A DNA stretch of 64,000 nt from Candidatus Sericytochromatia bacterium (GCA_035285865.1 JAYKHS010000030.1:32001-96000); one strand, 5' to 3'. Counted from the first letter of the stretch, positions 24,008-41,912 are shown. The notes: generated by a model not told the origin, from the sequence alone. Program-made: numbers and translations.

Positions 24008-24061
24008 TTGACGCCGGTACGGGCGCTGGTATCCTGAAAGGGTACTCATTTGGTCCCGTTT
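24008..24061 (+). promoter_or_regulatory. suf promoter TTGACG-N16-TATCCT plus imperfect palindrome AAAGGGTAC-N7-GTCCCGTTT
   Basis: Seen directly; palindrome 24037-24061 lies between -10 and rrf2 start. Confidence 0.6.
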
Positions 24062-24064
24062 AGC

Positions 24065-24568
24065 GTGTTCCGCATCAACCGACTTACCGACTACGCCCTG
24101 GTCATCCTGGGGCGCCTCGCCGCGTCCGGGAAGGGCGCCAGCCAGAGCGCGGCCGAACTGGCCGAGGCCACCCAGTTGCCTTTGCCCACGGTCATCAAGG
24201 TGCTCAAGACCCTTGCTCGCGAAGGCGTTCTGGATTCCGTCCGGGGCGCGCGCGGCGGTTATCGCCTGGTGCGGCCGGCCGAATCCCTGACGGTGCTCGA
24301 GGTTCTGGAGGCCATGGAGGGCCCCGTAGCGGTCACCGAATGCGTCGAGCCGGGGACGGAGGCCGGTTGTGCTTATGCGTCCGCTTGCGTGGCGCGTGGG
24401 CCTTGGGGCCGCATCAACGTGGCCTTGCGCGCGGCGCTGGCCGAGGTGGTCCTCGCCGATCTCGACACGCACGCGGGCGCTGCGCCGATGGTGCCGATGC
24501 CGGCGCATGCAGGGTCATGTTCTTCCGGGGGCTGCGCAGCCCCTTCTGCCGCGGGGGCCAGCAGATGA
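24065..24568 (+). CDS. Rrf2-family SUF Fe-S assembly regulator
   Basis: [17 protein letters not shown], three-Cys cluster motif; first gene of suf operon. Confidence 0.9.
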
Positions 24569-26016: not shown

Positions 26017-26022
26017 GGAAGG

Positions 26023-26780
<758 letters not shown>

Positions 26781-26784
<4 letters not shown>

Positions 26785-27992
26785 CGCATCCCGTTCTGGA
26801 TGGGTTGCGCCCGGGCACGGCGTCGCCCGTGTCTGCCCCGTGGCGTCAGGGTGCGTGGTCGCGCCTCGAACGCGATGGTGTGCCCCATCGGCGGCAGGAG
26901 GCGTGGCGGACGACGGATCCGGCTCCCTTCCTGGATCGTCTCGCGCAGGGTCAGGCAGCAGTGGCCCAGGAGCCCCCGACAGGTGCACTTGTCCTGAATG
27001 CGGACGGTACTTGGACGCTGCCAGCGGAAGATATCCCGGGCATTCGTGCGCGCAGCCTGGAGGATGCCTGCGAAGAGGGGACCGCGGTGTCGGACTGGCT
27101 TGCGGGAACCTCCGGGGCGATGGGGCTCGCGGATGTGGTTCGTGCCGGTGCATCGGGCGGCGGTGTCCTCGAGATAGCGGGCATCATCGAACAGCCTTTG
27201 CGCGTGTGGCGGACGCCGGCTGCGGGTGCGGCGATCCTGCCGCCGCTGCTCGTCGTGCTGGCTCCCGGTGCCCGGGTCGTGATCGAGGACCTCGGCGGTG
27301 CGGCAGGTACCCTGCTTACGGCCGGCCACGGCGTGGTCGGCCCTGATGCGCGCTTGCACTGGGTGCGGCATGTCTCGGCCGCCCTCGGGACGACCTGGTG
27401 GCAGGACACCCAGTCCTTCCGGGTAGAGGCCGGGGGGGAGCTGGATGTTCACGTGGTGGTCACGGGCGCTTCCTGGCTGCGGATGGATTTGCCGGTCGCG
27501 CTCGTCGGCGAAAATGCATCCTTCAGTTATCGTGGGCTGATTGCCAATCCGGCCGATGGCCATGCGGACCTCCGGCTGGATTTGCGCCACCGGGCCTCGC
27601 GGACGACCAGTCGTCAGGTGCATCGCGGCTTGCACGGTCGTGGTGCACGCGGCATCTTCACCGGATTGGTTCACGTGGTCGAAGGCGTGGGGGCCGTGCG
27701 ATCGGATCAGGAGTTGCGGGCCCTGATGCTGGCCGAGGGTGCCTCTGCCCTGTGCCAGCCCCAGCTCGAGATTCTCGCCGACGACGTTGCCTGCAGCCAC
27801 GGTGCGACGGTCGGCCAACTGGACGAGGATGCCTTGTTCTACCTGCGTGCGCGTGGCTTGGATGCTCCAACGGCGCGGGCCCTTCTGGCCGCCGCCTTCG
27901 CGCAGCCTGCCTTGGAGGGCTTGCCTTCCGGAACGGCACAGGCCGTGCGGACCGACCTTGCTCGTGCGGGGCTGGCGGAGGTGGGATCATGA
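26781..27992 (+). CDS. sufD: Fe-S cluster assembly protein SufD
   Basis: EAWR, PQLEILADDVACSHGATVGQLD, LFYLRARG. Confidence 0.92.
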
Positions 27993-29230
27993 GCGGCGTG
28001 ATCCGGGAGGTCGCGGCGGATCCTGCCGCGTGGCGTGCGGACTTTCCCATCCTGAGCCGAACCTTTCGAGAGAAGCCGCTTGTCTATCTCGACAGTGCTG
28101 CGACGACGCAGAAGCCACAAGCCGTGATCGATGCCGTGACGCGGTTCTACGCCTGGGAAAATGCGAACGTTCACCGCGGTGTCTACAAGCTGTCCGAGGA
28201 GGCCTCTGCGCGATTCGAAGCCGTGCGACCGCAGGTTGCACGCTTTATCGGTGCTCCTGGGCCACGTGGAGTCATCTTTGTCCGGGGGGCCACCGAGGGC
28301 ATCAATCTCGTGGCCAGCACGTGGGGCAGAACCCACGTCGGCGAGGGTGACGAAGTGCTCATCACCGGCATGGAACACCACGCCAACCTCGTGCCCTGGC
28401 AGCAGCTCTGCCTGCAGTCGGGGGCTCGGCTCGTCGTCGCGCCGCTGCTGGATGACGGCTCGTTGGACCTTGAGGCGTGGCAGAACCTGCTGGGTCCGAA
28501 GACCCGCATGGCGGCCATGGTGCATGTCTCCAATGCGCTGGGCACCGTGAACCCCGTCCGGGACATGGTGTCGGCCGCGCGCGCGGCGGGTGCCGTGACC
28601 CTGGTCGACGGCTCTCAGGCTGCGCCCCACATGTCAGTCGACATTTCCGCCATCGGTTGCGACTTCTACGTCTTCAGCGGCCACAAGGTCTACGGTCCGA
28701 CCGGGATCGGCGTGCTCTGGGGGCGTGAGGAACTGCTCGAGGAGATGCCCCCGTATCACCTTGGCGGCGACATGATCCTGTCCGTCACCTTCGAGGAGAC
28801 GGTATTCAACGAGATTCCCCACAAGTTCGAAGCCGGGACCCCCCACGTCGAGGGCGTTCTGGGCTTGTCGGCGGCCATGACCTACCTCGAGTCGTTGGGC
28901 CTCGACAGGGTGCGTGACCATGAGGATGCCTTGCTGGCGTACGGGACGAACCTGCTTCAGGACGTGCCCGGATTGCGCATGGTCGGTACAGCCACGCACA
29001 AGGCGGGCGTGCTCGGCTTCGTGATGGACGGGGTGCACCCCCACGATCTCGGCACGCTTCTGGATGCCCGGGGCATCGCCATACGGGCCGGTCACCACTG
29101 CGCACAGCCGGTGATGAAACGCTTCGGCGTGCCGGCCACGGCTCGGGCATCCCTTGGCCTCTACAACAGGCGCGAGGATCTGGAGGCGCTTGCGGAAGGC
29201 CTTCTGGCGATCCGGCGCATGTTCGGTTGA
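27989..29230 (+). CDS. sufS: Cysteine desulfurase SufS
   Basis: YLDSAATTQKP, FSGHKVYGPTG, RAGHHCAQP. Confidence 0.97.
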   Translation: MSGVIREVAADPAAWRADFPILSRTFREKPLVYLDSAATTQKPQAVIDAVTRFYAWENANVHRGVYKLSEEASARFEAVRPQVARFIGAPGPRGVIFVRGATEGINLVASTWGRTHVGEGDEVLITGMEHHANLVPWQQLCLQSGARLVVAPLLDDGSLDLEAWQNLLGPKTRMAAMVHVSNALGTVNPVRDMVSAARAAGAVTLVDGSQAAPHMSVDISAIGCDFYVFSGHKVYGPTGIGVLWGREELLEEMPPYHLGGDMILSVTFEETVFNEIPHKFEAGTPHVEGVLGLSAAMTYLESLGLDRVRDHEDALLAYGTNLLQDVPGLRMVGTATHKAGVLGFVMDGVHPHDLGTLLDARGIAIRAGHHCAQPVMKRFGVPATARASLGLYNRREDLEALAEGLLAIRRMFG

Positions 29231-29240
29231 GGAGTGCAGG

Positions 29241-29690
29241 ATGGACGAACTCAGGGACCTCTATCAGGAAGTGATCCTGGACCACAACCGCAGCCCGCGT
29301 AATCGTCGCCCGCTGGCGGACGCCACGCATCGAGCGAACGGCCACAACCCGCTGTGTGGAGACCAACTCGTCGTGCAGTTGCGCTGCGCCGACGGTCGTG
29401 TGCTCGAGGCCGCCTTCGAGGGAGATGGGTGTGCCATTTCCACCGCATCGGCTTCACTGATGACGGAAGGCATCCGGGGGCGCAACGAAGATGAGGTCCG
29501 CGCCATGCACGAGCAGTTCCATCGCCTGGTGACCACCGGGGATGCAGATCTGGACCGGCTGGGCAAGCTCGCCGCCTTGGCGGGAGTCGCCGAATACCCG
29601 GCGCGCGTGAAGTGCGCGAGTCTCGCGTGGCACACCCTTCTGGCCGCGCTGGACCGCAAACTGGACGCACCTGTCTCGACGGAGGCCTGA
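29241..29690 (+). CDS. sufU: SUF sulfur-transfer/scaffold protein SufU
   Basis: LYQEVILDH, NPLCGD, GCAISTAS, ARVKCA. Confidence 0.95.
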   Translation: MDELRDLYQEVILDHNRSPRNRRPLADATHRANGHNPLCGDQLVVQLRCADGRVLEAAFEGDGCAISTASASLMTEGIRGRNEDEVRAMHEQFHRLVTTGDADLDRLGKLAALAGVAEYPARVKCASLAWHTLLAALDRKLDAPVSTEA

Positions 29691-29693
29691 CGC

Positions 29694-30062
29694 ATGTCGG
29701 AACTGGAATCGAAGATGCCCCCTGTTTCGGCCCGAGCGCCTCTGGGGTCGGAAGAGATGGCGCGCCTCGAGGAAGAGATGGTCGCCGTCCTCAAGACCGT
29801 CCATGACCCCGAGATCCCCGTGGACATCTACGAACTCGGCCTGATTTACGAGCATCGGGTGGCTGCCGATCGGACGGCGTACGTCGTGATGACGCTGACC
29901 TCCCCTGGATGCCCGGTTGCCGGCAGCATGCCCGGCGAGGTCCGGCAGAAGATCGAGGCCATCGAGGGCATCGACGTAGCCGAAGTCGAGGTCACGTGGG
30001 ATCCGGCATGGACCCGCGACATGATGTCGGAAGTGGCCAAGCTCCAGCTCAACATGTACTGA
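29694..30062 (+). CDS. sufT: DUF59/SufT-type Fe-S assembly protein
   Basis: DPEIPVDIYELGLIY, MTLTSPGCP, WDPAW. Confidence 0.88.
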   Translation: MSELESKMPPVSARAPLGSEEMARLEEEMVAVLKTVHDPEIPVDIYELGLIYEHRVAADRTAYVVMTLTSPGCPVAGSMPGEVRQKIEAIEGIDVAEVEVTWDPAWTRDMMSEVAKLQLNMY

Positions 30063-30103: not shown

Positions 30104-30985
30104 TCAGCGGAAGCCGAGGCCGAACGAGATCGTGACGGTTTGCAGCCAGTTTTCGGCGAAGCCATCGCTGAACGGTTGCTTGATGCGCTCGGTGCCCTTG
30201 GCGCCGCCCCCCAGATAGCGCAGATTGGCGAATACGTCATAGGACGGGGACAGGGCAAGACCCGTTCGCAGCGAGGCATCGAGCAGTGCTCCCTCGAAGG
30301 GGAAGTCCACGCCGTTGAAACCGGCGCTGGTGGCGTAGGAACCGTCGGCATCGACGGCCCACCACGCTCTGCCACCCAGGGGCTGGCGTGCGCGGAACTT
30401 CAGCAGGGGCACGGGACCGAGGTCGGTGCGGACGACGCGCTGTTCGCCGTTGGCCGATGAAAAGACGGACACGGCGTTTCGAAGCTGAAGACTGAGGCCC
30501 AGACCGAGTTCACGGTCTGGGTCGAGGTCGAAGTCATACAGGTAGCTGGTGCGGTAGAAGTCGAAGCCGTAGCGCACATCCAGCGGTGTCGCTCGCTTGA
30601 AAGTGATTTCCTCGACGCGCTCGTCCTTGGTCGTGACGGTCTGCGTGCGCAGATCGATGGGCTGGTAAAGGAAGGTCCACTTGTGCCGCTCACCGAAGGT
30701 CAGCCCGGCCTGCAGGCGCTGGAACGGGAAGAGCGTGTCCTGTCTGCCATCGGCGACATAGTCGAATACCGTGCCCTGCGAGCCGTACTGGATCTTGTGG
30801 GTGATGACGCTGACAGCACCAAGCTCGATCTGGCCATCGATACGGATGTCCGTACCGGGCGGGTTGGGCACGGGAAAGCCCCACTGTCCGACGACCGACC
30901 CCTGCGAGAGTTCGACCTCCGCCCCGAATGCCGGCGTACCCGGAAAGCCCAGCAGGAGTGAGGCGACCAAGGTTTTGCGCAGCAT
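30104..30985 (-). CDS. Hypothetical outer-membrane beta-barrel protein
   Basis: Signal peptide (PAFG-A), alternating amphipathic strands, C-terminal ISFGLGFR; GGGAG RBS. Confidence 0.7.
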   Translation of the reverse strand: MLRKTLVASLLLGFPGTPAFGAEVELSQGSVVGQWGFPVPNPPGTDIRIDGQIELGAVSVITHKIQYGSQGTVFDYVADGRQDTLFPFQRLQAGLTFGERHKWTFLYQPIDLRTQTVTTKDERVEEITFKRATPLDVRYGFDFYRTSYLYDFDLDPDRELGLGLSLQLRNAVSVFSSANGEQRVVRTDLGPVPLLKFRARQPLGGRAWWAVDADGSYATSAGFNGVDFPFEGALLDASLRTGLALSPSYDVFANLRYLGGGAKGTERIKQPFSDGFAENWLQTVTISFGLGFR

Positions 30986-31019
30986 GACGTTCTCCCGTTA
31001 AGTCAGGGGGCTTTCCGCC

Positions 31020-31059
31020 ATGCTGCACCAGTCGGCTGCGATTGTCCAACAATTGTCTA
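31020..31059 (-). promoter_or_regulatory. Promoter TGGACA-N17-CAGCAT overlapped by CarH-type repeats TAGACA/TGGACA
   Basis: TGTCCA 31043 and TGTCTA 31054 on + strand, 11 bp apart. Confidence 0.7.
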
Positions 31060-31084
31060 GATTATTGAGCAACGGGGGCATGCC

Positions 31085-32308
31085 CTAGCTTGAGGGGACG
31101 CCAGCCCGAGCGCTGACGCGCACGTCGTCGGGTGGTGCAGCGAAGAGTCCCGTCTCCCCCAAGCGGTCACGGAAGTAACCACTGATCGTGCCGGGTGCCT
31201 CACTGTATGTGCCGTCGGGTCGCCGGCCCATGCGGTCGTCGTATTTGGCCCAGTTTCCCTTGCCCTCGCGCAGCACGGGGTAGGTGCCTGCCGGATCGTG
31301 TATGGCAAGCCCGCGTGACGCAGAACCGAACTCGCGCATCACTTGGTCGAAGATCGGCTGCAGGACGTTCTTCTGCTCGTGAATGCCAAGCAGCAGGTTT
31401 CCCCGGTGCATGGCCGCCGCACGCGCAGCGGGTTCCGAGGTCCTGCGGGCCTCCTGATAGGCGGTGAAGGCGTCCCGGATCAAGCCATCCGGATCCCTGA
31501 TCTGGCCCGAGGCATAGCCTTCTGCGGCCAAAGCCAGAACACCGTCCCGGCCCTTTGATTCCGCATCGAGGAAGATGGCGAATGCCGGAGCGATATGGTC
31601 ATGGACCGTACGGTTCCCCTGCTCCAGTCGGATGGCCATCGCCTCGACGGATCGGGATACCCTGGGGATGGCGCGGAGCAATTTCGCGGCTGGCCATAGG
31701 CCGGGGGCAAGCAGGTCCATGGTCTTCAGGTCGGCCTCTGCGAGGACCATGGATACCGCTTGTCTCAGGGCACCTTGCTGAGCCATGATGCCCGCCAGGT
31801 CATCGGCAACCTTGGGTCCCCACTGGTGCACCCGATGGGGTTCCCGAGACAGGCCATGCTTGAGTTCCGCGAGCAGGCGCCTCGTCAGTGCCATGCTGCG
31901 CAGGGCAACGCCCACTTCATGCGAAGCATGCTGACCGAAGGCCATCCAGCTCGGGTGCTCGGGTTGCCCGAGCCAGGCCCTGAATGATTCCGACAGGGCG
32001 TGGTAGTCCCGGGTAACCTGCGTGTTCTGTACCAACGGATCGCGGCCTGCCGCACCGAGCAACGCGATATGGGGCACATCGAATGCCGATTTCTCGGTGG
32101 TTGCCGCCTTTGCGACCGCAACCACGGACGCGAGGTTGCCAGAACTCGCGAGGGGCCTCGCGGTCGGGACGCCTGACCTCACAAGGCTATCGGACGGGAT
32201 CCCCTTTGGCTGCACGGGATCGACCCGGTCGGCTGATGGACCGACACCCGGCCCGCCCTGACGTCCGAAGGGGGACAGGGCTCCATGGTCGTGCAGACGT
32301 GGCTTCAC
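31085..32308 (-). CDS. Hypothetical protein, DUF2515-like motif series; start uncertain
   Basis: N..VT..Y..LS, W..F...AS..VG, GN, HEQ..LQP, W....DRM; low-complexity N-terminus. Confidence 0.6.
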   Translation of the reverse strand: MKPRLHDHGALSPFGRQGGPGVGPSADRVDPVQPKGIPSDSLVRSGVPTARPLASSGNLASVVAVAKAATTEKSAFDVPHIALLGAAGRDPLVQNTQVTRDYHALSESFRAWLGQPEHPSWMAFGQHASHEVGVALRSMALTRRLLAELKHGLSREPHRVHQWGPKVADDLAGIMAQQGALRQAVSMVLAEADLKTMDLLAPGLWPAAKLLRAIPRVSRSVEAMAIRLEQGNRTVHDHIAPAFAIFLDAESKGRDGVLALAAEGYASGQIRDPDGLIRDAFTAYQEARRTSEPAARAAAMHRGNLLLGIHEQKNVLQPIFDQVMREFGSASRGLAIHDPAGTYPVLREGKGNWAKYDDRMGRRPDGTYSEAPGTISGYFRDRLGETGLFAAPPDDVRVSARAGVPSS

Positions 32309-32370
32309 GGGGCTACCTGTCCAAGTTGTACCCTGCACTTGACTTGCACTTGCCTGCAGCGCGCCCGGGT

Positions 32371-32398
32371 TGGACGAAATGCGGGCAAATGCTTGACA
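32371..32398 (+). promoter_or_regulatory. CarH-type autoregulatory site TGGACG/CGGGCA/TTGACA overlapping -35
   Basis: Hexamers at 32371, 32382, 32393 (11-bp period). Confidence 0.55.
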
Positions 32399-32448
32399 AG
32401 CCCTGCGGTGCTGCCGGAGGATGGATTGTCCCGCGGCGAGGCCTGTCT

Positions 32449-33411
32449 GTGCGTGAACTCGGTCCCTACAAGATGAGCTCGGTGGCCCGGTTGACCGGGT
32501 TTTCACCGATGTTGCTGCGCGCTTGGGAGAAGCGGTACGACCTGTTGCGGCCGATCCGCTCCCCCAAGGGGCATCGGCTGTATACGGACCAGGACTTGCA
32601 GGTTCTCCGTCGCGTCAAGGCCATGATCGACGAGGGGCGTTCAATCGGTGAGATTGCCGGTCTGGGTATCGAGGCCCTGCTGGCCGAGCCCTTGCCTCTA
32701 CCCCCTCGCCAGCAGCCTTCCGCGAAGCTGCTCGAGCCTGCAGATGACCGCGGGACGGACAGCGGTCGATCCGCAATGCTCGAGGCTCTGATCGAACGTC
32801 TGGTGCAGGGTGCCGTGCAGATGGACGAGATGGCGCTCGAGACCGCGCTGGACCAGGCCTTCGCCCGCTACAGCGTTGCCGTGGCCGTGGAGAATGTCAT
32901 CCGGCCGGCAACCATTCGTATCGGGGATCTCTGGCACGAGGGCGTGTGCTCGATCTCTGGAGAGCATCTGGCCAGCCAGGCGTTCACGCGCCGCCTGCAT
33001 CGCCTCTTGGACATCTCGCGCAACCGCGATGTTTCGCTACCGTACATCATCACGGCGTGTTTCCCCGACGAATGGCACGAGTTCGGCGCGCTACTCGTGG
33101 CCTTCTACATCTCTCAGGCGGGTGCACGGGTCCTGCACCTCGGGGCGTCGGTGCCCTTCGACGATCTGGAGCGTGCGCTCGAGAAGCTGGATCCTCAAGC
33201 GGTCTATCTGTCTGTGACCCGAGACAGCCTGTTTCGCGGCAACCGGGAGGCATTGGCCAGCCTCGCGACGCGTTGGGGCGATCGCGTGGCTTTCCACGTC
33301 GGTGGGCAGGGTGTCGGGTCCGATGAGGGTCTGGCAGCCTCGGGAGTGCGTGTCTGGCACCCCGGGTCATCCATCGCCCAGCTTGCGCTTTCCGAGATAC
33401 TGAAGCGATGA
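32449..33411 (+). CDS. carH: MerR-family B12-dependent photoreceptor/repressor (CarH/LitR)
   Basis: LRAWEKRY...GHRLYT HTH; W-x9-EH (WHEGVCSISGEH); ExHxxG (EWHEFG); SVT; VGG. Confidence 0.88.
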   Translation: MRELGPYKMSSVARLTGFSPMLLRAWEKRYDLLRPIRSPKGHRLYTDQDLQVLRRVKAMIDEGRSIGEIAGLGIEALLAEPLPLPPRQQPSAKLLEPADDRGTDSGRSAMLEALIERLVQGAVQMDEMALETALDQAFARYSVAVAVENVIRPATIRIGDLWHEGVCSISGEHLASQAFTRRLHRLLDISRNRDVSLPYIITACFPDEWHEFGALLVAFYISQAGARVLHLGASVPFDDLERALEKLDPQAVYLSVTRDSLFRGNREALASLATRWGDRVAFHVGGQGVGSDEGLAASGVRVWHPGSSIAQLALSEILKR

Positions 33412-34481
33412 GTGGTCGCGAATCCGCTAGGTCTGTCAAACAGGGCGTGCTATTGGTGAACCTCGGCACCCCCAATGCCCCGAAGGCTCCGGAAGTTCGT
33501 CGCTATCTCGCCGAGTTCCTCTCGGATCCACGCGTGCTGGACATTCCTGCGGTCGCCCGAGCACTGTTGCTTCGCCTGGTCATCCTGCCTTTCCGGCCGA
33601 GGAAATCCGCAGAGGCGTACCGCAAAATATGGACCGATCGCGGGTCTCCGCTGCTCGTGCATGGGCTGGACTTGGCGGTGGCCGTGCGTCAGCGTGTCGG
33701 TGCGGAGGTGCCCGTCGAACTCGGCATGCGGTACGGCCAGCCATCGCTTGGCGATGCGATGGCTCGGCTGGCTGCCGCCGGTGTCGATGAGTTGATCGTG
33801 CTGCCACTCTATCCGCAGTATGCGTCCTCATCGACCGGTTCCACGCTCGAGCGGGTCTACGCCTTGTTGGCGCAGGAGTGGAACGTGCCGCAGGTTCGCG
33901 TTGTCGGTGCCTTCTATGACCATCCGGCCTTCATTGCAGCCATGGCCCGGCATGTCGCCAAGGCACTCGAGGCTCTGCCTGGTGCGCACCTGTTGCTCAG
34001 TTACCACGGTCTGCCCGAGCGCCAATGTCGCAAGTCCGATCCGACCGGTCGCCATTGCCTCGCCTCCACGGAGTGCTGTGCAGCCATCGTCGAGGCCAAT
34101 CGGCATTGCTACCGGGCTCAGTGCATGGAGACGTCCCGCCGTCTTGCGGAGCGCCTCGATCTCACGGAGGAAGCCTGGACTGTTTCCTTCCAGTCGCGAC
34201 TCGGCAGGACTCCGTGGATTCGTCCATACACGGATGAGGTGCTGCCCGAGATGGCCCGAAGCGGCTGCAAGGATGTCGTCGTGGCTTGTCCTGCATTCAC
34301 TGCGGACTGTCTCGAGACGCTCGAGGAAATCGGCATGCGCGCAGCCGAAGACTTCTCGGCGGCCGGGGGCGGACGCCTGCATCTCGTGCCGGGCCTGAAT
34401 GCCGAGGCGCACTGGGCTGATGCCGTGGTGCAACTCCTGCGCGAGCAGGGCCTGAGGACCGGCGTCGCGGTCGGCGTCTGA
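33408..34481 (+). CDS. hemH: Ferrochelatase with C-x5-CC-x9-C insertion
   Basis: LLVNLGTP, FLSDPRV, PLYPQY, SYHGLP, FQSRLG, DCLETLEEI. Confidence 0.96.
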   Translation: MSGRESARSVKQGVLLVNLGTPNAPKAPEVRRYLAEFLSDPRVLDIPAVARALLLRLVILPFRPRKSAEAYRKIWTDRGSPLLVHGLDLAVAVRQRVGAEVPVELGMRYGQPSLGDAMARLAAAGVDELIVLPLYPQYASSSTGSTLERVYALLAQEWNVPQVRVVGAFYDHPAFIAAMARHVAKALEALPGAHLLLSYHGLPERQCRKSDPTGRHCLASTECCAAIVEANRHCYRAQCMETSRRLAERLDLTEEAWTVSFQSRLGRTPWIRPYTDEVLPEMARSGCKDVVVACPAFTADCLETLEEIGMRAAEDFSAAGGGRLHLVPGLNAEAHWADAVVQLLREQGLRTGVAVGV

Positions 34482-35272
34482 TGCCGGTCGAGGAGCTGGC
34501 GTGGACGCTCGGCGTCTCCGTGGCGATGTTTGCCCTGATCTGGGCTGTCTCCCTTCCTCTTCGCAACGCGTCCATCATCGATGCGTTCTGGGGGCCTGCT
34601 TTCGCGGTCATCGTCGGTACCGTGCTGTTTCGAGTGGGCGTCGCGGGGCCGCGTGCGGGCGTCCTTGCGGCCTTGGTGCTGCTGTGGGCCATGCGTCTGG
34701 GTGTCTATCTTGGACGGCGGCAGTTCGGTCATGCCGAGGACCCGCGGTATGCGGCCTTCCGTGCGGCGGATGGAGCGCATTTCTGGTGGCGCTCTTTCTT
34801 CAAGGTGTTCATGCTGCAGGCCCTGCTCGCCTGGGGACTGTCCCTGCCGATGCAGGCCGCACTGCTGGCACCTGACGCGGCGCATCCGACGGCGTGGGAT
34901 TTTGTCGGTTGGTGCTGTTTTGCGCTGGGCTTCGGTTGCGAGGTCATTGCGGACGCCCAGCTGGCTCGTTTCCGCAGGGAACGGACAACTCCGGACGCGG
35001 TGCTGGATCGAGGCCTGTGGCGTTACAGCCGTCATCCCAACTACTTCGGCGAGTCCTTGCTCTGGTGGGGCTTCGGGGCCGTGTCTCTTGCCGCGACAGG
35101 ATCATGGTGGGTCTGGCTGGGTCCTGCTGCGATGACCTTCCTGCTGTTGCGGGTTTCGGGCGTGACGCTGCTGGAGTCGGGTCTGCAAGCGAGAAAGCCA
35201 GCCTATGCGGCTTATGTGGCGCGTACGTCAGCTTTCGTACCGTGGTTCCCGCGCAAGACGGACGCTGCCTGA
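34481..35272 (+). CDS. DUF1295 membrane protein (steroid 5-alpha-reductase-like)
   Basis: NASIIDAFWG, EDPRY, ADAQL, GLWRYSRHPNYFGE. Confidence 0.9.
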   Translation: MPVEELAWTLGVSVAMFALIWAVSLPLRNASIIDAFWGPAFAVIVGTVLFRVGVAGPRAGVLAALVLLWAMRLGVYLGRRQFGHAEDPRYAAFRAADGAHFWWRSFFKVFMLQALLAWGLSLPMQAALLAPDAAHPTAWDFVGWCCFALGFGCEVIADAQLARFRRERTTPDAVLDRGLWRYSRHPNYFGESLLWWGFGAVSLAATGSWWVWLGPAAMTFLLLRVSGVTLLESGLQARKPAYAAYVARTSAFVPWFPRKTDAA

Positions 35273-35321
35273 GCCAGCGGGCGGGCCTGGAGTGGCCGAT
35301 TGCGCAGAGGGCATGTCGTGC

Positions 35322-35344
35322 TAGGCTTGTGTAAATATTGTCTA
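35322..35344 (+). promoter_or_regulatory. -10 TAGGCT followed by CarH-type repeats
   Basis: TGTGTA 35328 and TGTCTA 35339, 11 bp apart. Confidence 0.7.
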
Positions 35345-35357
35345 CATAGGAGGAGCC

Positions 35358-36113
35358 ATGGCGCGACATGTCCTGATCGTGGGTGCAGGCGGCGGCATCG
35401 GCTCTGCTCTGGCCCGTCGTCTCGTGGCAGCAGGGGATCGCGTGACGCTTGCGGGACGGCGCTCCGAGGTTCTGGAGGGTCTGGCCGGTGAACTGGGTGA
35501 GCGGGCTTTCCCGGTCGCCGGAGATGCCGGCGTGGCCGGCGAGATGGAGCGTGTCGTCCAGGAGGCCGAGGCCGCGCTTGGGCCTGTGGACGGGCTGGTC
35601 CACGCCGTCGGTTCAATTCTGATCCGGCCTTTGCATCTGACCCGCATCGAGGATCTCGATGCCGCGTTCCATGCCAATGTCAGGACGCTGTGGCACGCCA
35701 TGCGTGCCGTACTTCCGGGCATGCAGGCTCGCAAGGCGGGGGCCGTGGTGGCCTTCGGCAGCGTGGCGGGGCAGACCGGCATGGCCAGCCACGAAGCCAT
35801 CGCTGCAGCCAAGGGTGCCGTCGCTGCACTTGTCAGGAGCGCCGCGATCACCTATGCCTCGAGCGGTATTCGCATCAACGCCGTCGCGCCCGCTCTGGTC
35901 GACACGCCACTGGCATCGGGCCTCTTGCGTTCGGAGGCTGCGCGGGCCGCTTCCACCGCGATGCATCCCCTGGGACGCATCGGCCAACCCGAGGAGGTCG
36001 CCGCGCTTGTGGCCCATCTGCTTTCCGAGGATGCATCGTGGATCACGGGCCAGATCATCGGCATCGATGGTGGACTTGGTGCGGGTATCCCCAAGCCGGT
36101 GCGTCCCGGCTGA
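35358..36113 (+). CDS. SDR-family oxidoreductase
   Basis: GAGGGIG, HEAIAAAKGAV (atypical, no catalytic Tyr), NAVAP, ITGQIIGIDGG; AGGAGG RBS. Confidence 0.9.
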   Translation: MARHVLIVGAGGGIGSALARRLVAAGDRVTLAGRRSEVLEGLAGELGERAFPVAGDAGVAGEMERVVQEAEAALGPVDGLVHAVGSILIRPLHLTRIEDLDAAFHANVRTLWHAMRAVLPGMQARKAGAVVAFGSVAGQTGMASHEAIAAAKGAVAALVRSAAITYASSGIRINAVAPALVDTPLASGLLRSEAARAASTAMHPLGRIGQPEEVAALVAHLLSEDASWITGQIIGIDGGLGAGIPKPVRPG

Positions 36114-36148
36114 CCGCCATCGGCGGAAGGTGTCCGTCCGGTGTCGGG

Positions 36149-37363
36149 CTATGGAGCAAGCACGCGTTCGGCAGCGCGGATGCCGGCTTCCAGGGCCCCG
36201 TCGATGCTCGACCGCACCTGGGCATCCGAGGCGAGGAACACGCCCTGACGCGGAGTCTCGAGGGATGGACGGTCCGCGGTGGGCCAGAATTGTGCAGCGA
36301 GGTCAGTGTGGACGTGCCCAAGACGCGCATGGATGGTGTCTGCTGGCGAGAAATCCGAGAGCACCTGCCGTAGCCATGCTTCGCCATCCTCGGGTACTTC
36401 GGGCACTTGGAACACCGTCTGGTGGAGGCCATCCGGTGCGTAGGCCGGAGCAATGGTCGAGACGGGGCAAGCGACCCTGAAGGGGTCTGTCGGACGGCCC
36501 AGCAGCAACCGGCGTCCCGGTACCAGCGGCTTGTCGCTGTAGATGTGCAGGCTGACGGATTTCCGACCCTCAGGAATCGTGCATTCCGGAAGCAGCGTCC
36601 GCCAAGCGGAGGGATGGCTCGCGACAACCACGGTCTCGGCCTCGATGGATTCGCCGTCCGCAGTCCGGACGCCCGTCACCCGATCTCCGTTCATCATCAG
36701 GGCGATGACCTTGCGGCCGGTTTCGACTTCAGCCCCGCATCCGATGGCCAGGGCATCCGCGACGGCCTGCATGCCCCGTGCCGGCAAGGCAGCGCCGCCC
36801 TCGGCCAACATGCGCCAAGCCACCAGCATCTCCGCCGCGGGAGCTTCGAGCGTGTCCGAGAGTTGGACTCCGCCGAAGAAAGGCCGGAAGAAGGCTTCCA
36901 CGAGGCGGTCGGATACTCCCGCCTCGCGAAGGAGGGCGGCCGTGCTGCCGGTCCGCAACGTGGCGTCTCCCCTTAGCGCCAGGAGCGTCAGGCGCAGGAG
37001 GGCTCCCGCATCCGAGAACTGCCACCACGGGGCAGTCAGCAATCCTGACAGCGCGAGCGGGTCCTGGCGCGGATCCATGAGTCGCCGCCAGCGGCCATCC
37101 GGGTCCCGGATCCACGCTCCTCGGTCGACGGGGCGCAGGTCGAGACGGCGCACGTCCATCAGGCTGCGCAGGTGAGGATATGCGGGGAAGAGCACCTGGA
37201 AACCCGCATCGCGCACGTGATCATGGCTACCCGTTCCGCCGACCCGTCCACCGACCCTGTCGCCGGCCTCAAGAATCCGCACGGTGCGTCCAGCCCGAGA
37301 CAGTACGGTGGCTGCAGCTAGGCCGGCCATGCCGGCTCCCACGATGATGACCGACTGTCGCAT
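36149..37363 (-). CDS. FAD-dependent oxidoreductase (amine oxidase/protoporphyrinogen oxidase-like)
   Basis: IIVGAGMAGL, EAGDRVGGR, DAGFQV, FFRPFFGG, SSIDGALEAG. Confidence 0.88.
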   Translation of the reverse strand: MRQSVIIVGAGMAGLAAATVLSRAGRTVRILEAGDRVGGRVGGTGSHDHVRDAGFQVLFPAYPHLRSLMDVRRLDLRPVDRGAWIRDPDGRWRRLMDPRQDPLALSGLLTAPWWQFSDAGALLRLTLLALRGDATLRTGSTAALLREAGVSDRLVEAFFRPFFGGVQLSDTLEAPAAEMLVAWRMLAEGGAALPARGMQAVADALAIGCGAEVETGRKVIALMMNGDRVTGVRTADGESIEAETVVVASHPSAWRTLLPECTIPEGRKSVSLHIYSDKPLVPGRRLLLGRPTDPFRVACPVSTIAPAYAPDGLHQTVFQVPEVPEDGEAWLRQVLSDFSPADTIHARLGHVHTDLAAQFWPTADRPSLETPRQGVFLASDAQVRSSIDGALEAGIRAAERVLAP

Positions 37364-37365
37364 CT

Positions 37366-38766
37366 TCAGGACATTGCCCCTCGTCTGTCGGCCAGCACGG
37401 CAAGTGCACGCCGGCGTGCCGCGGCATGGTCGACCATCGGGGCCGGATAGGCCGCGATCCGAGCCAGCGGCGGGGCTGCCGCAGGTTCGTGGCGCCATTC
37501 GGCAGGAAGGTCGGCCAACTCGGGTACCCAGCGGGCAATGTAGCGGCCTTCCGGGTCGAATTTTCTGGCCTGAGTGGTCGGATTGAAGATGCGGAAGAAG
37601 GGCGCGGCGTCGGCCCCGCATCCGGCAGCCCACTGCCAGCCCAATGTGTTGCTCGCTGGGTCGGCGTCGACAAGCGTGTCCATGAACCAGCTTGCGCCTT
37701 CCTGCCATGGCAGCAGCAGGTCCTTGACCAGAAAGGACGCCACGATCATCCGGACCCGATTGTGCATCCATCCGGTTGCCCACAACTGACGCATCCCCGC
37801 ATCGACGACGGGGAAGCCGGTACGTCCCCGCTGCCAGGCCAGGCGTTCTTCGGGGGCCTGACGCCAGGGAAAGTCGGCTTGGCGGGTATCGAGGGGCTGG
37901 TCCAGCGTATGCGGGAAGTGATGCAGGAGGTGCCAGCCGAACTCGCGCCAGCCCAGCTCGCGGAGCCACGTTTCCGTGCCCGGATCCGGACGACCTGAGC
38001 AGGCCTCCATCGCCGCCCACCACGCCTGCCGTACGGAAATCCCGCCGTTCGCCAACCAAGGCGAGAGTGAAGATGTGCCTGGCTCTGCCGGCAGATCCCG
38101 TCTCTCGGCGTAGGCCCGTATGTCCGTGTCAACGAAGCGGGACAGCCGCAGAAGCCCGGAGGCCTCGTCAGGTGACCAGTGTCGATCCAGTTTGGTCGTC
38201 CAGGGGTGCACGGGGCGCCGCATCCGGCAAGCTGCTTCATCTGAGGGGAAGCGCCTTTCCGGCGGTACCAGTTCCGTCGGCGCGGGCACCGGTTGTGCCG
38301 GAGAAGGCCGCTGGGCGCAAGCTTTCCAGAAGGGTGTGAACACTCGGTAGGGCATGCCGCTACCTGTCGCGATGTCTTCCGGCTCCCACAGTGTCTGGCC
38401 CGGGTACCGCAGGAAACGGATGCCCGCAGGCTCGAGGATACGGGCCAATACCGTCTGGTCGCTGCTGCCGGCCGGGTCAAGCGCCCGCGTGCCGTAAATG
38501 GCCGACGCACCGCACTCGGCTGCCATTTTTTCCAGCACGGGCACGGCAGCTCCTCGGCGGCGGACAAGCGGGCTGCCTAGGCGCTCCAGATCTGCAGCGA
38601 GCGCGTCGATCTGGCGTTCTCGCCACCACGCCCTTGCGCTGCCGCTGTCGGCGTCTTCTTCCTCGATGACGATCGGCAGGACGCGGCCTGCCCTGGATGC
38701 AGCCAGCAGGGCCGGATGGTCCGCGATCCTGAGCGCATCGCGGAACCAGACGATTTGGACGGTCAA
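37366..38766 (-). CDS. phrB: Class I CPD DNA photolyase
   Basis: VWFRDALRIADHPAL, GTSSLSP, ELGWREF, TGWMHNRVRM, DADPASN, FRIFNP; TTG start chosen by hand. Confidence 0.95.
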   Translation of the reverse strand: MTVQIVWFRDALRIADHPALLAASRAGRVLPIVIEEEDADSGSARAWWRERQIDALAADLERLGSPLVRRRGAAVPVLEKMAAECGASAIYGTRALDPAGSSDQTVLARILEPAGIRFLRYPGQTLWEPEDIATGSGMPYRVFTPFWKACAQRPSPAQPVPAPTELVPPERRFPSDEAACRMRRPVHPWTTKLDRHWSPDEASGLLRLSRFVDTDIRAYAERRDLPAEPGTSSLSPWLANGGISVRQAWWAAMEACSGRPDPGTETWLRELGWREFGWHLLHHFPHTLDQPLDTRQADFPWRQAPEERLAWQRGRTGFPVVDAGMRQLWATGWMHNRVRMIVASFLVKDLLLPWQEGASWFMDTLVDADPASNTLGWQWAAGCGADAAPFFRIFNPTTQARKFDPEGRYIARWVPELADLPAEWRHEPAAAPPLARIAAYPAPMVDHAAARRRALAVLADRRGAMS

Positions 38767-38826
38767 CGGGGCGCACGTCTTTCCCGGGCAGGGCTTACAC
38801 TTTACCAGTTGAAGGAGGTCGAGGCT

Positions 38827-39660
38827 TTGCACGATCCGGTGCGCTGGGGTGTGCTCGGGGCCGGCAGGGCCGGGCGAGCGCGGGCCGAAGCCATTCGCGA
38901 CCTGCCCGGGGGCCTGCTCGTCGGTCTGTGGTCCCGCAGGGAGTGGCCGGATCCTGTCCAGCCGATGAGGCGTGCTCGGCCGGATGTCGTGGTGATTGCC
39001 ACAGAGGACGTCGCCCACGCCGAAACCATCGGGATGGCACTCGATGCGGGGGCCGATGTCCTCGTGGAGTATCCGCTCGTCACGGACCCGCAACAAGCGG
39101 CAGAACTCGACGCGTTGGCGCGGTCTCTCGGGCGGGGCATACGCGTCTCGTGGCTGGGATGGCAATCGGCTATCGGAAGGGCTGTGCGCGAAGCCGCCCG
39201 TGTACCCGGTCCGGCTCACTGGGACGTTCGCTTCACGGGGGGCATGGCCGGCTGGGTGGCCGATGGCCTCAAGCAAGGTCGTCATGCGACTCACGCCGCA
39301 GGGCGTCTGCGCATGCTCTGGGACCTGATGTCGGGTTGGCGTCACGCCGAGCTTGTCGTCAGGGAGAGCCGCGAAGGCGTGCGTGCGTGTTTCCGGCTCG
39401 AGGGACATCGCGGTGTCACCGCCGTACTCGAGGAGATCCGCGTGGCCGACGGCCCGCGGAAGGTTGCGTGGGAACGCGACGGAGTGGCCATCCGACCGAA
39501 TGGAGCAGCGCGTGCCTCGGCCTTCGCGGCCGACCAGGCGATCTGGTTGCGGACGTGGAACGAAGGTGGCTGGGGGCTCGGAGTGCAGGAAGAGGAGATC
39601 GACTTCGTGCGAGCTTGCGCCACGTTGGAACGGGATGCGCGGCAAGTGTTCGACGCCTAG
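38827..39660 (+). CDS. Gfo/Idh/MocA oxidoreductase, biliverdin reductase A-like
   Basis: GAGRAGRAR, LVGLWSRRE, VLVEYP; AAGGAGG RBS + TTG; -10 TACACT 38796. Confidence 0.7.
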   Translation: MHDPVRWGVLGAGRAGRARAEAIRDLPGGLLVGLWSRREWPDPVQPMRRARPDVVVIATEDVAHAETIGMALDAGADVLVEYPLVTDPQQAAELDALARSLGRGIRVSWLGWQSAIGRAVREAARVPGPAHWDVRFTGGMAGWVADGLKQGRHATHAAGRLRMLWDLMSGWRHAELVVRESREGVRACFRLEGHRGVTAVLEEIRVADGPRKVAWERDGVAIRPNGAARASAFAADQAIWLRTWNEGGWGLGVQEEEIDFVRACATLERDARQVFDA

Positions 39661-39662
39661 GA

Positions 39663-39700
39663 TGGCATGCTTTGTCTTGCTTCTGTGTTGATTTTGTGTA
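39663..39700 (+). promoter_or_regulatory. Extended -10 TGgCATGCT followed by three CarH-type repeats
   Basis: TGTCTT 39673, TGTGTT 39684, TGTGTA 39695 (11-bp period). Confidence 0.7.
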
Positions 39701-39705
39701 GGTAA

Positions 39706-40353
39706 ATGGCTACGCTGATGAGCATCATGCTGATGCTGACAGCCGGGATGGTCACGATGGCGGGTGCGGGTCTGACGGGCCTGTCGTACGGGGAACTCTA
39801 CATGCTCGTCGATCGGGCTGTTCGGCACCCTGTCCCGCTGACGGGGGTGCTCACGGTCGAGGAGGCCACCAGCGAAGGCTGGACGACTGATCGTTACGCC
39901 GTGCACACGTACCCGGACGGCCAGGTCACCACGGAGGTCGAGCGCAGCAGCCGCCTTCCCCGGGGCCTGCGTATCCGGGAGATTCCGGGGGGAGACCTTG
40001 AAGTGCGTTTGCCGGGCATCCTCGGCGCCTTGCCGATCCGCGTCACTCCGACGGACCCTCGCGCCCTCACCCGTCAGGGATTCCGTGCCTCGGATGTGAC
40101 TCCGGTCGCCCTTGCCAAAGCACTTCTCGCTCAGGTGGATCGCTTGCAACGTGGTGTGCGTTCGGTCGTGCCCGAGGGTCTCGTGGGGGTGCATTTGCCA
40201 TCCACGAGAGGTCTGCCGCCCGGGGTGGACGGTGCGGAGGCCGGTGTGGCCCCGGACGGCACGGTACGCTGGGGGTGTCTGTATCGTGGCGGTGAACCCG
40301 TCTATCGGTTCCGGCTGATGGTCGACGCCGGGACGAGCAATCGGGCCGGCTGA
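39706..40353 (+). CDS. Exported LolA/DUF1571-like protein
   Basis: Hydrophobic N-terminus; LEVRLPG...DPRA...G...DVTP block shared with next gene. Confidence 0.55.
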   Translation: MATLMSIMLMLTAGMVTMAGAGLTGLSYGELYMLVDRAVRHPVPLTGVLTVEEATSEGWTTDRYAVHTYPDGQVTTEVERSSRLPRGLRIREIPGGDLEVRLPGILGALPIRVTPTDPRALTRQGFRASDVTPVALAKALLAQVDRLQRGVRSVVPEGLVGVHLPSTRGLPPGVDGAEAGVAPDGTVRWGCLYRGGEPVYRFRLMVDAGTSNRAG

Positions 40354-40364
40354 TTTTCTGTTCC

Positions 40365-40393
40365 TTGACGAGGGGTTCACGGCTTCTTAAAAT
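40365..40393 (+). promoter_or_regulatory. Sigma70 promoter TTGACG-N17-TAAAAT
   Basis: Near-consensus hexamers and spacing. Confidence 0.7.
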
Positions 40394-40424
40394 ACAGAAG
40401 TCCTCCGACCGGAGCCCCGATCCC

Positions 40425-41180
40425 TTGTTGCCTGTCCCGAAGTTTGCCTTCCGCGCCGTCATGGGTGTGCTGGCGGCGCTTCTGGCGGCGTGCGGCGGCT
40501 CTCCTCCTTCCGGGACAATGCCGGATCCGGTGCTTCCGGGGCCGATGCCGCAGCCTCTGCTGCCTACGCCTGGCTTTCCTCAGCAGGGTCAGGACGAGCT
40601 GGGTGCCCTGCTGGCACGGATCGATGCCAGCACGCGTCCGCTCAGGGCGTACGAGGCCATCAATCAGGTCCAGGAATGGACTGCGTCGAAGCAGCAGCGT
40701 TCTCAGGCCAAGCTTTTGTTCCGTCCTCCGGGCACGGCCCGCAGCGAGTTCATCTCCGGCAACGGGCCGCCGGTCGGGATGGCTGTACTGTCGCACGGTG
40801 GCCCGACGGTCCAGATCAAGCTCCCCGGAGCCCTGTCCTTCGTCAAGATGACGGTCAGCAGCCGCGATTCCAGGTCGCGTTCCCTGATTGGCCTCTATCC
40901 GGACGAGGTGACGCCGGCCAGTTTTGCCATGCTGATGCGCCAACCCACGGCTCGCCTGACGATCGGGGGCCGAGAGCGCCTCGGGCAACGGGATGTCGTG
41001 CTGATCAGGGTGGAGGGTGCGCGCCTGCCCGGTGGGCTGGACGGTGTCACGGTCGGCTTCGATTCGCGTACCGGAGAGTGGTTGCTGGGACGGTACTACC
41101 GTTCACGCCAATTGGTCTACGAGTCCGCATACCTTCGGCGCGTCGAGCGTACCGTCCAGGATCGCGAACTGGAACTCTGA
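40425..41180 (+). CDS. LolA/DUF1571-like lipoprotein
   Basis: Lipobox LAAC, Pro-rich linker, KLLFRPPGTARSE LolA-type strand; start uncertain (40425-40461). Confidence 0.65.
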   Translation: MLPVPKFAFRAVMGVLAALLAACGGSPPSGTMPDPVLPGPMPQPLLPTPGFPQQGQDELGALLARIDASTRPLRAYEAINQVQEWTASKQQRSQAKLLFRPPGTARSEFISGNGPPVGMAVLSHGGPTVQIKLPGALSFVKMTVSSRDSRSRSLIGLYPDEVTPASFAMLMRQPTARLTIGGRERLGQRDVVLIRVEGARLPGGLDGVTVGFDSRTGEWLLGRYYRSRQLVYESAYLRRVERTVQDRELEL

Positions 41181-41181
41181 C

Positions 41182-41700
41182 TCAGGCGTGGAAACCCACC
41201 GCACCCACGGCAAGGCTTGCCGGTCCGGGGCGTTTCCCGAGGACGATGCCGATGCGTGTAAGGCGGCTCAGGTCCAGAATGCCCGTGGTCATCTCCGGGT
41301 GGAAGGCGGCGAAGGGCAGGTCGATCGTCGTCCATGCAGCCGGCGCCCACGCTTCCGCGCAGTAGTGCTCCCACGGGCGACGTTGCTGGAGGGAACGAAG
41401 GTGAACCTGGAACGGTGCCCCCACCCCCCGGACCAGCAGACGCACCCCGCGAAGATGGGTGGCATCGAAGGGGTGCTCCCGCGTCACGAGAGGCAGGGCA
41501 ACCTGGATGAAGCCTCCGCGATTCTCGAGTCGGACTGTGCCTTCGAGATGGAGGCAGGCCCGGCCGTCGATCGTGTCGTAGCGGACTTCAGCATCAGAGA
41601 GCCCACCCATCACCCGGTCCGTGAAGGCCATCCATCGCGTTCCGAGTCTGCTGGTGCCATCGCCGTTGAAGGTGTCGATCCAGAGTGCGGTTGCAGTCAT
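41182..41700 (-). CDS. CIA30/NDUFAF1-family protein
   Basis: W..FTDRVMGGLS, GTVRLENRGGFIQ, IDLPFAAF. Confidence 0.9.
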   Translation of the reverse strand: MTATALWIDTFNGDGTSRLGTRWMAFTDRVMGGLSDAEVRYDTIDGRACLHLEGTVRLENRGGFIQVALPLVTREHPFDATHLRGVRLLVRGVGAPFQVHLRSLQQRRPWEHYCAEAWAPAAWTTIDLPFAAFHPEMTTGILDLSRLTRIGIVLGKRPGPASLAVGAVGFHA

Positions 41701-41706
41701 GGCTTG

Positions 41707-41736
41707 AGCGTAACGCAGTTGTCTGGTTTCTGTATA
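41707..41736 (-). promoter_or_regulatory. Leaderless promoter TATACA-N18-TACGCT with CarH-type repeats TATACA/CAGACA
   Basis: TGTCTG 41720 and TGTATA 41731 on + strand; -10 is 6 nt before ATG. Confidence 0.7.
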
Positions 41737-41796: not shown

Positions 41797-41869
41797 GCGG
41801 GAGTAACTCAATTGGTAGAGTTCCAGCCTTCCAAGCTGGCTGTTGCGGGTTCGAGCCCCGTCTCCCGCT
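41797..41869 (+). tRNA. tRNA-Gly (anticodon TCC), CCA not encoded
   Basis: GCGGGAG/CTCCCGC acceptor stem, CCAGC-CTTCCAA-GCTGG arm, GGTTCGAG T-loop. Confidence 0.97.
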
Positions 41870-41912
41870 CTCCTTTGCCGGCATCGCGCCGGTGGCCCGA
41901 AAGGGCCGGCAG

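Follow-up and report, generated by a model that had tools for sequence, protein, structure and literature searches.

As far as the available text of PMC9758184 goes, the characterised B12-dependent CarH proteins (class I LitR) are mainly carotenoid switches. They carry a Wx9EH motif, whose loss marks CarA, and D/ExHx2G-x41-SxT/V-x22-27-GG; their published DNA repeat is 5'-nnnnTnnACAn-3', the operators of Thermus (TtCarH) and Bacillus megaterium (BmCarH) have three or four repeats, and an Arg-Asp pair and a three-repeat operator are common, though not universal, among CarH proteins (all from the accessible part of PMC9304148). Class II LitR of Pseudomonas controls phrB, folE, a short-chain dehydrogenase/reductase (SDR) and an FAD oxidoreductase (same portion of PMC9758184). 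Here, we describe a cluster headed by a carH homologue in a 64,000-nucleotide stretch of DNA (the window, at its full length) from a Candidatus Sericytochromatia bacterium (GCA_035285865.1 JAYKHS010000030.1:32001-96000), and a set of genes, including a distant rhodopsin gene, that share its operator-like boxes.

For proteorhodopsin (pR), regulators of expression were unknown in 2012 apart from RpoS1 (PMC3380642). No report of CarH or LitR control of a rhodopsin was found in the literature searched, most subscription papers lying outside it, and the portion of PMC9614035 available contained no CarH-rhodopsin link. Ca. Sericytochromatia are described as non-photosynthetic in the accessible text of PMC12779958; their xanthorhodopsins have already been noted, without a description of regulation in the parts of that literature at hand.

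We consider it probable that the window encodes a class I CarH whose release by light frees a photoprotection regulon that includes the rhodopsin, with both binding and light control inferred from sequence. A first-pass annotation had read the locus as a CarH regulon for tetrapyrrole clean-up and envelope lipid handling; this interpretation is partly supported, being right in outline but incomplete.

The CarH homologue and its genomic setting

The genome holding the window (G000; 2.8 Mb, 83 % complete) was compared with three congeners, G001, G002 and G003 (86, 94 and 98 % complete). Since these four genomes are kin and not independent samples, no combined P value is given. Locus order is the same in the three congeners, at ~45-92 % protein identity, and the G003 contig stops inside the gene for a 215-aa protein. 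Upstream regions (1424 predicted in G000) derive from genes called with a crude in-house caller. Two RNA runs matched with 8-10 % of words; the assembled pieces were short, of low depth and in many cases from other organisms.

The best PDB matches of the regulator are TtCarH structures (3whp and 5c8d, E ~1e-30). Its MerR helix-turn-helix (HTH) domain (PF13411, E 1e-16) carries a RAWEKRY recognition helix in 4/4 genomes, one Arg-to-Lys change away from RxWERRY. The adenosyl-capping motif with its following His, Wx9EH, reads WHEGVCSISGEH and variants in the four genomes, all of which also keep ExHxxG; the full B12 motif in G000 is EWHEFG-x41-SVT-x27-GG, the congeners reading SVM at the SxT position. 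The motifs for adenosylcobalamin (AdoCbl) are therefore retained, as the first-pass annotation had proposed, and because Wx9EH, ExHx2G and RAWEKRY are kept throughout, we assign the regulator to CarH and not CarA, following the criterion in the available part of PMC9304148. G000 has no second MerR-B12 protein; its other B12-binding_2 match sits in a 1152-aa frame. A cobA/btuR adenosyltransferase is present in 4/4 genomes and a BtuB-like receptor in G000 scores below cut-off, which together make AdoCbl supply plausible. No cobalamin riboswitch was detected in the seven sources scanned.

Operator boxes in the carH cluster

Hexamers phased at 11 bp had been reported at five promoters of the cluster, and all twelve were recovered. 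On the minus strand, four of the five are TnnACA-type pairs in tandem at an 11-bp period: TGGACA/TAGACA at the gene for a predicted outer-membrane β-barrel (31043/31054), TACACA/TAGACA at the SDR gene (35328/35339), AAGACA/AACACA/TACACA at the 215-aa gene (39673/39684/39695) and CAGACA/TATACA at the CIA30-family gene (41720/41731). A pattern derived from these sites matched the window four times against 0.04 expected, a count reached in 0/100 shuffles, although this test is circular. The published consensus offers an independent test: across G000, TnnACA-N5-TnnACA occurs in 17/1424 upstream regions at period 11, compared with 1-6 at periods 8-10 and 12-16. These 17 regions represent 13 distinct sites, however, and since five of the 13 resemble a second motif found before secreted hydrolases, the raw enrichment overstates the contribution of CarH.

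The boxes at the SDR and 215-aa genes are kept in 4/4 genomes and that of CIA30 in the 3/3 examined. Whereas 208/619 intergenic columns are identical across the four genomes, the boxes mostly hold their T and ACA constant and vary at nn. Relative to the genes they precede, the boxes are found in either orientation, an argument against a sigma element. The fifth site, at carH itself, reads TnnACG / CnnnCA / TTGACA in 4/4 genomes with four different nn pairs; this trio is weak by matrix score, yet conserved at its informative bases, pointing to likely autoregulation.

In contrast to the targets first proposed, among which the barrel, carH-hemH-DUF1295, SDR and CIA30 genes do have boxes, none was found by matrix scan at the promoter of the LolA-fold lipoprotein (251 aa). 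The box assigned to it at 39673-39700 precedes the 215-aa paralogue instead (BLASTP E 9e-6, 25 % identity to the 251-aa protein), and the lipoprotein gene at 40425 has a promoter of its own that is also present in G001 and G002. The promoter of the 346-aa gene likewise lacks a box (best matrix score 4.5), as does the divergent photolyase/biliverdin reductase (BVR)-like promoter (best score -2.9), where no repeat had been seen before.

Boxes beyond the window

A matrix was built from the 15 window-locus sites of the four genomes and used to scan G000. At a score of at least 18, it returned 15/1424 upstream regions at period 11 (four of them training sites) and 0-8 at other periods, while 30 column-shuffled matrices returned 0-10, none equalling the real count. 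This genome-wide scan, an approach the first-pass annotation had put forward, yielded held-out conserved boxes at genes for the rhodopsin, FolE2, a glutathione peroxidase (gpx) and a lipoprotein-lipoprotein-TolC-RND operon, together with a weaker one at a TonB operon. Tetrapyrrole clean-up and envelope genes thus stay within the predicted regulon, the scope of which had been drawn too narrowly.

The rhodopsin box (G000 C20:52127) reads TTGTCTA-N4-TTGTAT, invariant in 4/4 genomes with a variable spacer, and has a second, inverse pair upstream of it in G000; the congener promoters (G001-G003) score 28.7/20.2/20.7. The other four boxes are kept in all three congeners. That of folE2 (C30:97667; 20.7/20.0/24.6) lies 1.7 kb beyond the window end with a second site upstream, and that of gpx (C17:112781; 13.1/17.4/12.4) belongs to a gene divergent from ahpC-ahpF. 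The remaining two precede the lipoprotein-lipoprotein-TolC-RND operon (C11:150383; 17.0/19.0/15.2) and, more weakly, exbB-exbD-tonB-receptor (C4:82477; 16.0/13.8/18.9). Every held-out congener score ranks within the highest 2 % of the 1404 G000 upstream regions, and of nine negative-control promoters eight have scores under 0. A strict pattern, drawn up with these sites already known, gave five matches in G003 and no control match (barrel, SDR, rhodopsin and, at two contig ends, the 215-aa gene twice). A looser pattern in G002 matched folE2, rhodopsin and the 215-aa gene among others, but is uninformative because its 18 matches compare with 12 in the control.

Several further sites are not claimed. 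Those at a nitroreductase (9.5/15.0/-2.7 in congeners), a cytochrome c peroxidase (10.2/11.1) and an SRPBCC-epimerase-DUF1731 gene (12.8/12.8/-3.3) are patchy, and two more lie at G000 C28:53171 and C22:135950. The site at C20:27889 we take to be DnaA boxes before dnaA. Repeats scoring 22.5 and 20.1 upstream of rpmB-rpmG-rpsR (G000 C30:134005-134205) may belong to a metal regulator and are also not claimed. Elsewhere in G000, C4:104195-109812 and C10:56596-58125 hold two further photolyase/cryptochrome paralogues and a DPRP photolyase-related gene; no box was seen at the C4 pair.

Taken together, these data suggest the following model. In the dark, AdoCbl-CarH would bind the two-repeat TnnACA boxes, probably as a dimer, because CarH of Cystobacter, itself dimeric, binds stably to two repeats in tandem (accessible text of PMC9304148); in the light, CarH would release them. 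Induction of hemH would then remove photosensitising protoporphyrin, and induction of folE2 would supply pterin/folate, perhaps for a photolyase antenna. The gpx, SDR, CIA30, barrel, LolA-like protein and TolC/RND operon genes would be induced as well, and within the same carotenoid-free regulon so would the distant xanthorhodopsin proton pump, its chromophore being obtained from the surroundings or from other cells, or else through an unknown route.

A xanthorhodopsin without recognisable pigment genes

The opsin was found in 4/41 genomes searched, all in this genus, and its nearest named relatives (91 % identity) are from Ca. Tanganyikabacteria / Ca. Sericytochromatia. The best PDB match is xanthorhodopsin 3ddl (E 3e-91); in the alignment to it the protein keeps D95/T99/E106, H61, the retinal Lys and the Gly at SrXR 156, the last being the fenestration criterion in the available part of PMC12779958. 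By sequence it is a fenestrated DTE xanthorhodopsin and a predicted proton pump. An unannotated open reading frame (ORF) with a LolA-like-looking C-terminus and no Pfam match lies directly upstream on the same strand (L038:5398-6027, G000 C20); DNA resembling it stands before the rhodopsin gene of G001 and G003 but not of G002.

The first-pass annotation had seen no recognisable carotenoid genes in the locus, where the FAD oxidoreductase falls below the crtI cut-off, and had suggested that crt genes may lie elsewhere, which is probably not so. Phytoene/squalene synthase (crtB) was detected in 0/4 genus genomes and 11/41 of the whole sample; crtI over cut-off (control G011 positive), an RPE65-type oxygenase and blh (control G041 positive) were each detected in 0/4, as was CrtY in a search that left CruA/CruP and CrtYcd cyclases outside. 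PF05834 matches 'over cut-off' in the genus were rejected as CrtY, being Rossmann stubs of 35-61 residues. A local blh profile found blh in 27/80 related opsin loci and none in G000. Because crtB, full-length crtI and crtY all went undetected in four genomes of 83-98 % completeness, crt genes are probably absent from the genus rather than elsewhere in it, and as no known retinal route was found, the chromophore would come from the environment, from other cells or from an unknown route.

An alternative to this last point accepts the regulon as described but has the cells make retinal, with genes missing from the assemblies or an unknown enzyme (the SDR, FAD oxidoreductase and DUF1295 proteins are candidates). 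The incompleteness of the assemblies leaves room for it, and Aurantimicrobium, which lacks blh, holds endogenous retinal (available text of PMC7734400). Aurantimicrobium has a C50 carotenoid pathway, however, whereas the missing phytoene/squalene synthase leaves no C40 precursor route visible here, and we regard endogenous synthesis as unlikely, at perhaps one chance in a handful.

No physical CarH-opsin linkage was found in 80 related rhodopsin loci. Three of these had a divergent MerR gene, each without B12 domains but with a C-terminal ECEC motif (L141:181-1134, L145:4984-5892 and L170:4846-5835), facing a xanthorhodopsin-(crtY)-blh operon; this protein, present in three distant genomes, is a candidate B12-independent rhodopsin regulator.

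Related clusters in distant Sericytochromatia

In three genomes of another family (G012, G018 and G024), carH clusters with an FAD oxidoreductase, an SDR and barrel homologues; their ORF lists also contain folE, a DPRP photolyase-related gene and an SRPBCC-epimerase (Pfam-confirmed for G012). A TnnACA pair stands at carH in these three genomes and in G009, G021 and G028, and none was matched at carH in G011, G013, G014, G032 and G035. The carH promoters at six loci (L010, L016, L018, L019, L023 and L028) have two inverted, interleaved TnnACA pairs between divergent carH and folE or other genes. In family f6 (G028, G029, G031-G035 and G037-G039), a long CarH-like match is present in 10/10 genomes and a phytoene synthase in 0/10, which suggests that CarH without carotenoid genes is common among Sericytochromatia. 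The present genus uses FolE2, unrelated to FolE, under a box 33 kb away; FolE2 under a box here and folE in the distant carH clusters are an independent convergence on the same function.

Points against CarH control and other regulators

Several observations weigh against control of this gene set by CarH. At a matrix score of at least 16, 1/30 column-shuffled matrices equalled the real count. The regulator scores 142.9 bits against the NCBIfam CarH equivalog NF052513, for which the cut-off is 400, although this is still its best NCBIfam match. Its residues aligned to the head-to-tail Arg-Asp dimer pair of TtCarH are Trp and Ser. The barrel box is intact in 3/4 genomes, G002 having one repeat only, and 7/8 G000 sites examined have two repeats and no third, the 215-aa gene site being the exception with three or four. 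The photolyase and FAD oxidoreductase genes, classic targets, have no box in the matrix scan of promoters, and the cyclases outside the CrtY search bear on the claim of a carotenoid-free regulon. Finally, a second 11-bp motif, TGTT(C/A)A-N5-TGT(T/A)AA-like, precedes genes for secreted peptidase M14, subtilase and PLD-domain lipoproteins, so another regulator also uses this period.

Boxes of the PhoB type consist of direct 11-bp repeats around a TGTCA core, and the second motif looks like the box of a different regulator, perhaps of PhoB/OmpR type. Hence, a regulator of the OmpR/PhoB family could bind all the boxes, leaving CarH with its own operon alone; two OmpR-like regulators were seen, and the carH promoter is itself weak (10.1). 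We consider this improbable: the CarH-type boxes fit the published repeat, with nn variable and T/ACA fixed; they crowd the carH cluster, where four fall within 11 kb, while the rest of the window has no site scoring above 14; the same pair recurs at carH promoters of distant Sericytochromatia; and the targets match known LitR targets (accessible part of PMC9758184). Equally doubtful is that CarH binds the boxes as a sensor of B12 availability or redox state, or as a light-independent CarA-like repressor, for although the Arg-Asp pair is lost and the weaker conserved box at the TonB-ExbBD-receptor operon might be a sign of cofactor uptake, Wx9EH, the motif lost in CarA, is intact in 4/4 genomes and a light signal would suit rhodopsin, hemH and folE2 as targets.

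Envelope proteins and chromophore supply

The barrel proposed by the first-pass annotation is borne out as a predicted 10-stranded outer-membrane barrel: the AlphaFold model (predicted local distance difference test, pLDDT, 89.6) has 10 long strands and matches OpcA, Legionella porin I and OmpT (VIA Z 17.8-18.2) at 10-14 % identity, a likeness of fold only, and a shared barrel fold shows no function. Its family comprises 501 representatives; among 102 members there was no Pfam family bar one weak match, and none matched Pfam Omptin.

The barrel occurs in 26/41 class genomes. Ten wider barrel regions in the class comprise four in or near a carH cluster (G012, G014, G018 and G024), one beside a photolyase (G013) and five without a light-related neighbour seen. 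It was also found in 10 of the 50 rhodopsin-locus genomes examined (of 80), at 11 loci: one divergent from xanthorhodopsin-blh, one at 3 kb from a crtI-like gene, one at 3.5 kb from an SRPBCC-epimerase and eight without such a neighbour. The first of these, in a Bacteriovoracaceae genome (L284:394-6711, G054), sets the barrel homologue divergent from xanthorhodopsin, blh, a GT2 glycosyltransferase and a desaturase/ketolase-like gene. A metagenome scan with the barrel gave three loci only. A second, more distant barrel paralogue, without a matched box, is present in all four congeners (G000 C11:172412-173044).

A LolA-like protein had also been noted in the locus, and a LolA fold is indeed predicted for the 251-aa lipoprotein. 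Its model (pLDDT 80), an unclosed β half-barrel with a helical lid, has LolA-superfamily matches in Foldseek (VIA Z 12-14.7), including Porphyromonas gingivalis LolA (VIA Z 14.1, root-mean-square deviation 3.4, 170 aligned) and the sponge protein 8i34 (VIA Z 13.2). The superfamily includes the carotenoid-binding sponge carotenoprotein EPD-BCP1 (available text of PMC10470211).

These barrel and LolA predictions allow, but do not show, a role in chromophore import. We raise as a tentative and rather unlikely idea a 'borrowed-pigment' phototrophy gated by CarH, in which light would induce an apo-xanthorhodopsin and, with it, envelope members that import retinal or carotenoids of other organisms: the 10-stranded barrel and the LolA-like carrier, perhaps joined by the TonB and TolC/RND operons. 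Hints in this direction are the Bacteriovoracaceae locus, with its barrel homologue next to xanthorhodopsin-blh, and the carotenoid binding of a sponge protein with a LolA-superfamily fold. If so, rhodopsin chromophore supply would gain its first outer-membrane importer in this barrel family.

Features of the locus

The features are collected in Table 1. The GFO/BVR-like protein has biliverdin reductase 5b3t as its best PDB match (E 6.5e-7, N-terminal part only). Relatives of the 346-aa protein were found at genus level only, and an Atlas comparison gave nothing informative. An Rrf2-regulated suf Fe-S cluster operon (window 24050-30062) ends directly at the barrel gene, and a site scoring 13.6 lies at window 23979, before the Rrf2 gene.

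Table 1. Predicted genes, promoters and boxes of the carH cluster, in window coordinates unless a G000 contig is named
Feature	Position	Strand	Remarks
Outer-membrane β-barrel, 293 aa, predicted CarH target	30104..30985	-	No Pfam family; 10 strands predicted
Operator pair TAGACA-N5-TGGACA	31043..31059	-	Second repeat is likely -35 of barrel promoter
346-aa hypothetical gene	31085..32125	-	Syntenic in genus; not placed in regulon
carH promoter trio TGGACG / CGGGCA / TTGACA	32371..32398	+	DR-like, dr, DR (= -35); matrix score 10.1
CarH / class I LitR homologue	32449..33411	+	MerR HTH + B12-binding_2 + B12-binding (Pfam)
hemH ferrochelatase	33408..34481	+	PF00762 E 1e-101; TIGR00109 over cut-off; overlaps carH stop codon
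DUF1295 membrane protein	34481..35272	+	PF06966; coupled to hemH
Operator pair TAGACA-N5-TACACA	35328..35344	-	Directly after extended -10-like TGCTAGGCT
SDR	35358..36113	+	PF13561
FAD-dependent oxidoreductase (Amino_oxidase family)	36149..37363	-	Under crtI and hpnE cut-offs
Photolyase-family gene	37366..38766	-	Profile matches
GFO/biliverdin-reductase-like oxidoreductase	38827..39660	+	PF01408
Operator with three phased repeats	39673..39700	-	Fourth, partial repeat in congeners
215-aa paralogue of LolA-fold lipoprotein, predicted direct target of 39673 box	39706..40353	+	BLASTP to 251-aa protein
Sigma70-like promoter TTGACG-17-TAAAAT, without box	40365..40393	+	Serves LolA-fold lipoprotein
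251-aa lipoprotein, LAAC lipobox-like, predicted LolA fold	40425..41180	+	Foldseek, VIA
CIA30-family protein	41182..41700	-	PF08547
Operator pair TATACA-N5-CAGACA	41720..41736	-	Over likely -35 and spacer of CIA30
tRNA-Gly(TCC), divergent from CIA30	41797..41870	+	Right edge of cluster
Second-motif sites in G000	C5:39068, C12:38087, C17:118833, C22:87150, C22:135952, C28:93112		

Comparison with known systems

A motif-complete CarH thus appears to run a carotenoid-free regulon with an energy-harvesting rhodopsin in an uncultured sister class of the cyanobacteria, and a direct light sensor can be named, as a prediction, for a proton-pumping rhodopsin gene. The short list of co-regulated envelope proteins bears on how rhodopsin bearers without retinal genes are supplied with chromophore. 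With their two repeats, the operators are a simple natural system in which to test whether CarH binds as a dimer, and E. coli could host a reconstruction of the entire switch.

Like CarH/LitR of Thermus (5c8d, 3whp) and CarH of B. megaterium, the regulator described here combines a MerR HTH with an AdoCbl domain bearing Wx9EH and ExHx2G, has TnnACA repeats at 11 bp over promoter elements and is likely autoregulated. It differs from them in that carotenoid genes are not among its predicted targets, two repeats are usual in its operators, the Arg-Asp pair is lost, and the regulon, a rhodopsin included, is spread across several contigs. The CarH of Cystobacter fuscus, an AdoCbl-dependent dimer stable on two tandem repeats, fits the two-repeat boxes; its own target is a crt operon with five repeats, it is countered by a CarS antirepressor, and no such operon was found here (comparison with the accessible part of PMC9304148).

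The protective core is known in kind, since the class II LitR proteins of Pseudomonas (PplR/PmlR) have like targets, with folE, SDR, FAD oxidoreductase and photolyase genes near the regulator. These proteins do not bind B12, sensing light via a short LOV protein instead, and rhodopsin is unmentioned in the available text of PMC9758184; in the present locus, the GTP cyclohydrolase is FolE2 and the photolyase has no box.

The opsin shares the DTE motif, His-Asp pair, Schiff-base Lys and Gly156 with the xanthorhodopsins of Salinibacter (3ddl), Kin4B8 (7ytb) and Gloeobacter (6nwd), but its host genus is one in which carotenoid and retinal genes were not found, and its promoter carries a CarH box. 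Opsins in hosts lacking known retinal genes are described for Saccharibacteria, which may use host retinal (bioRxiv 2022.02.13.480300, in the part available), and an opsin without blh for Aurantimicrobium, which has endogenous retinal all the same and, unlike the present genus, a C50 carotenoid pathway. For such hosts, retinal obtained from other cells or an unknown route has been proposed. What sets this genus apart from both is a specific photoreceptor that, by prediction, gates the opsin and controls candidate envelope carriers along with it.

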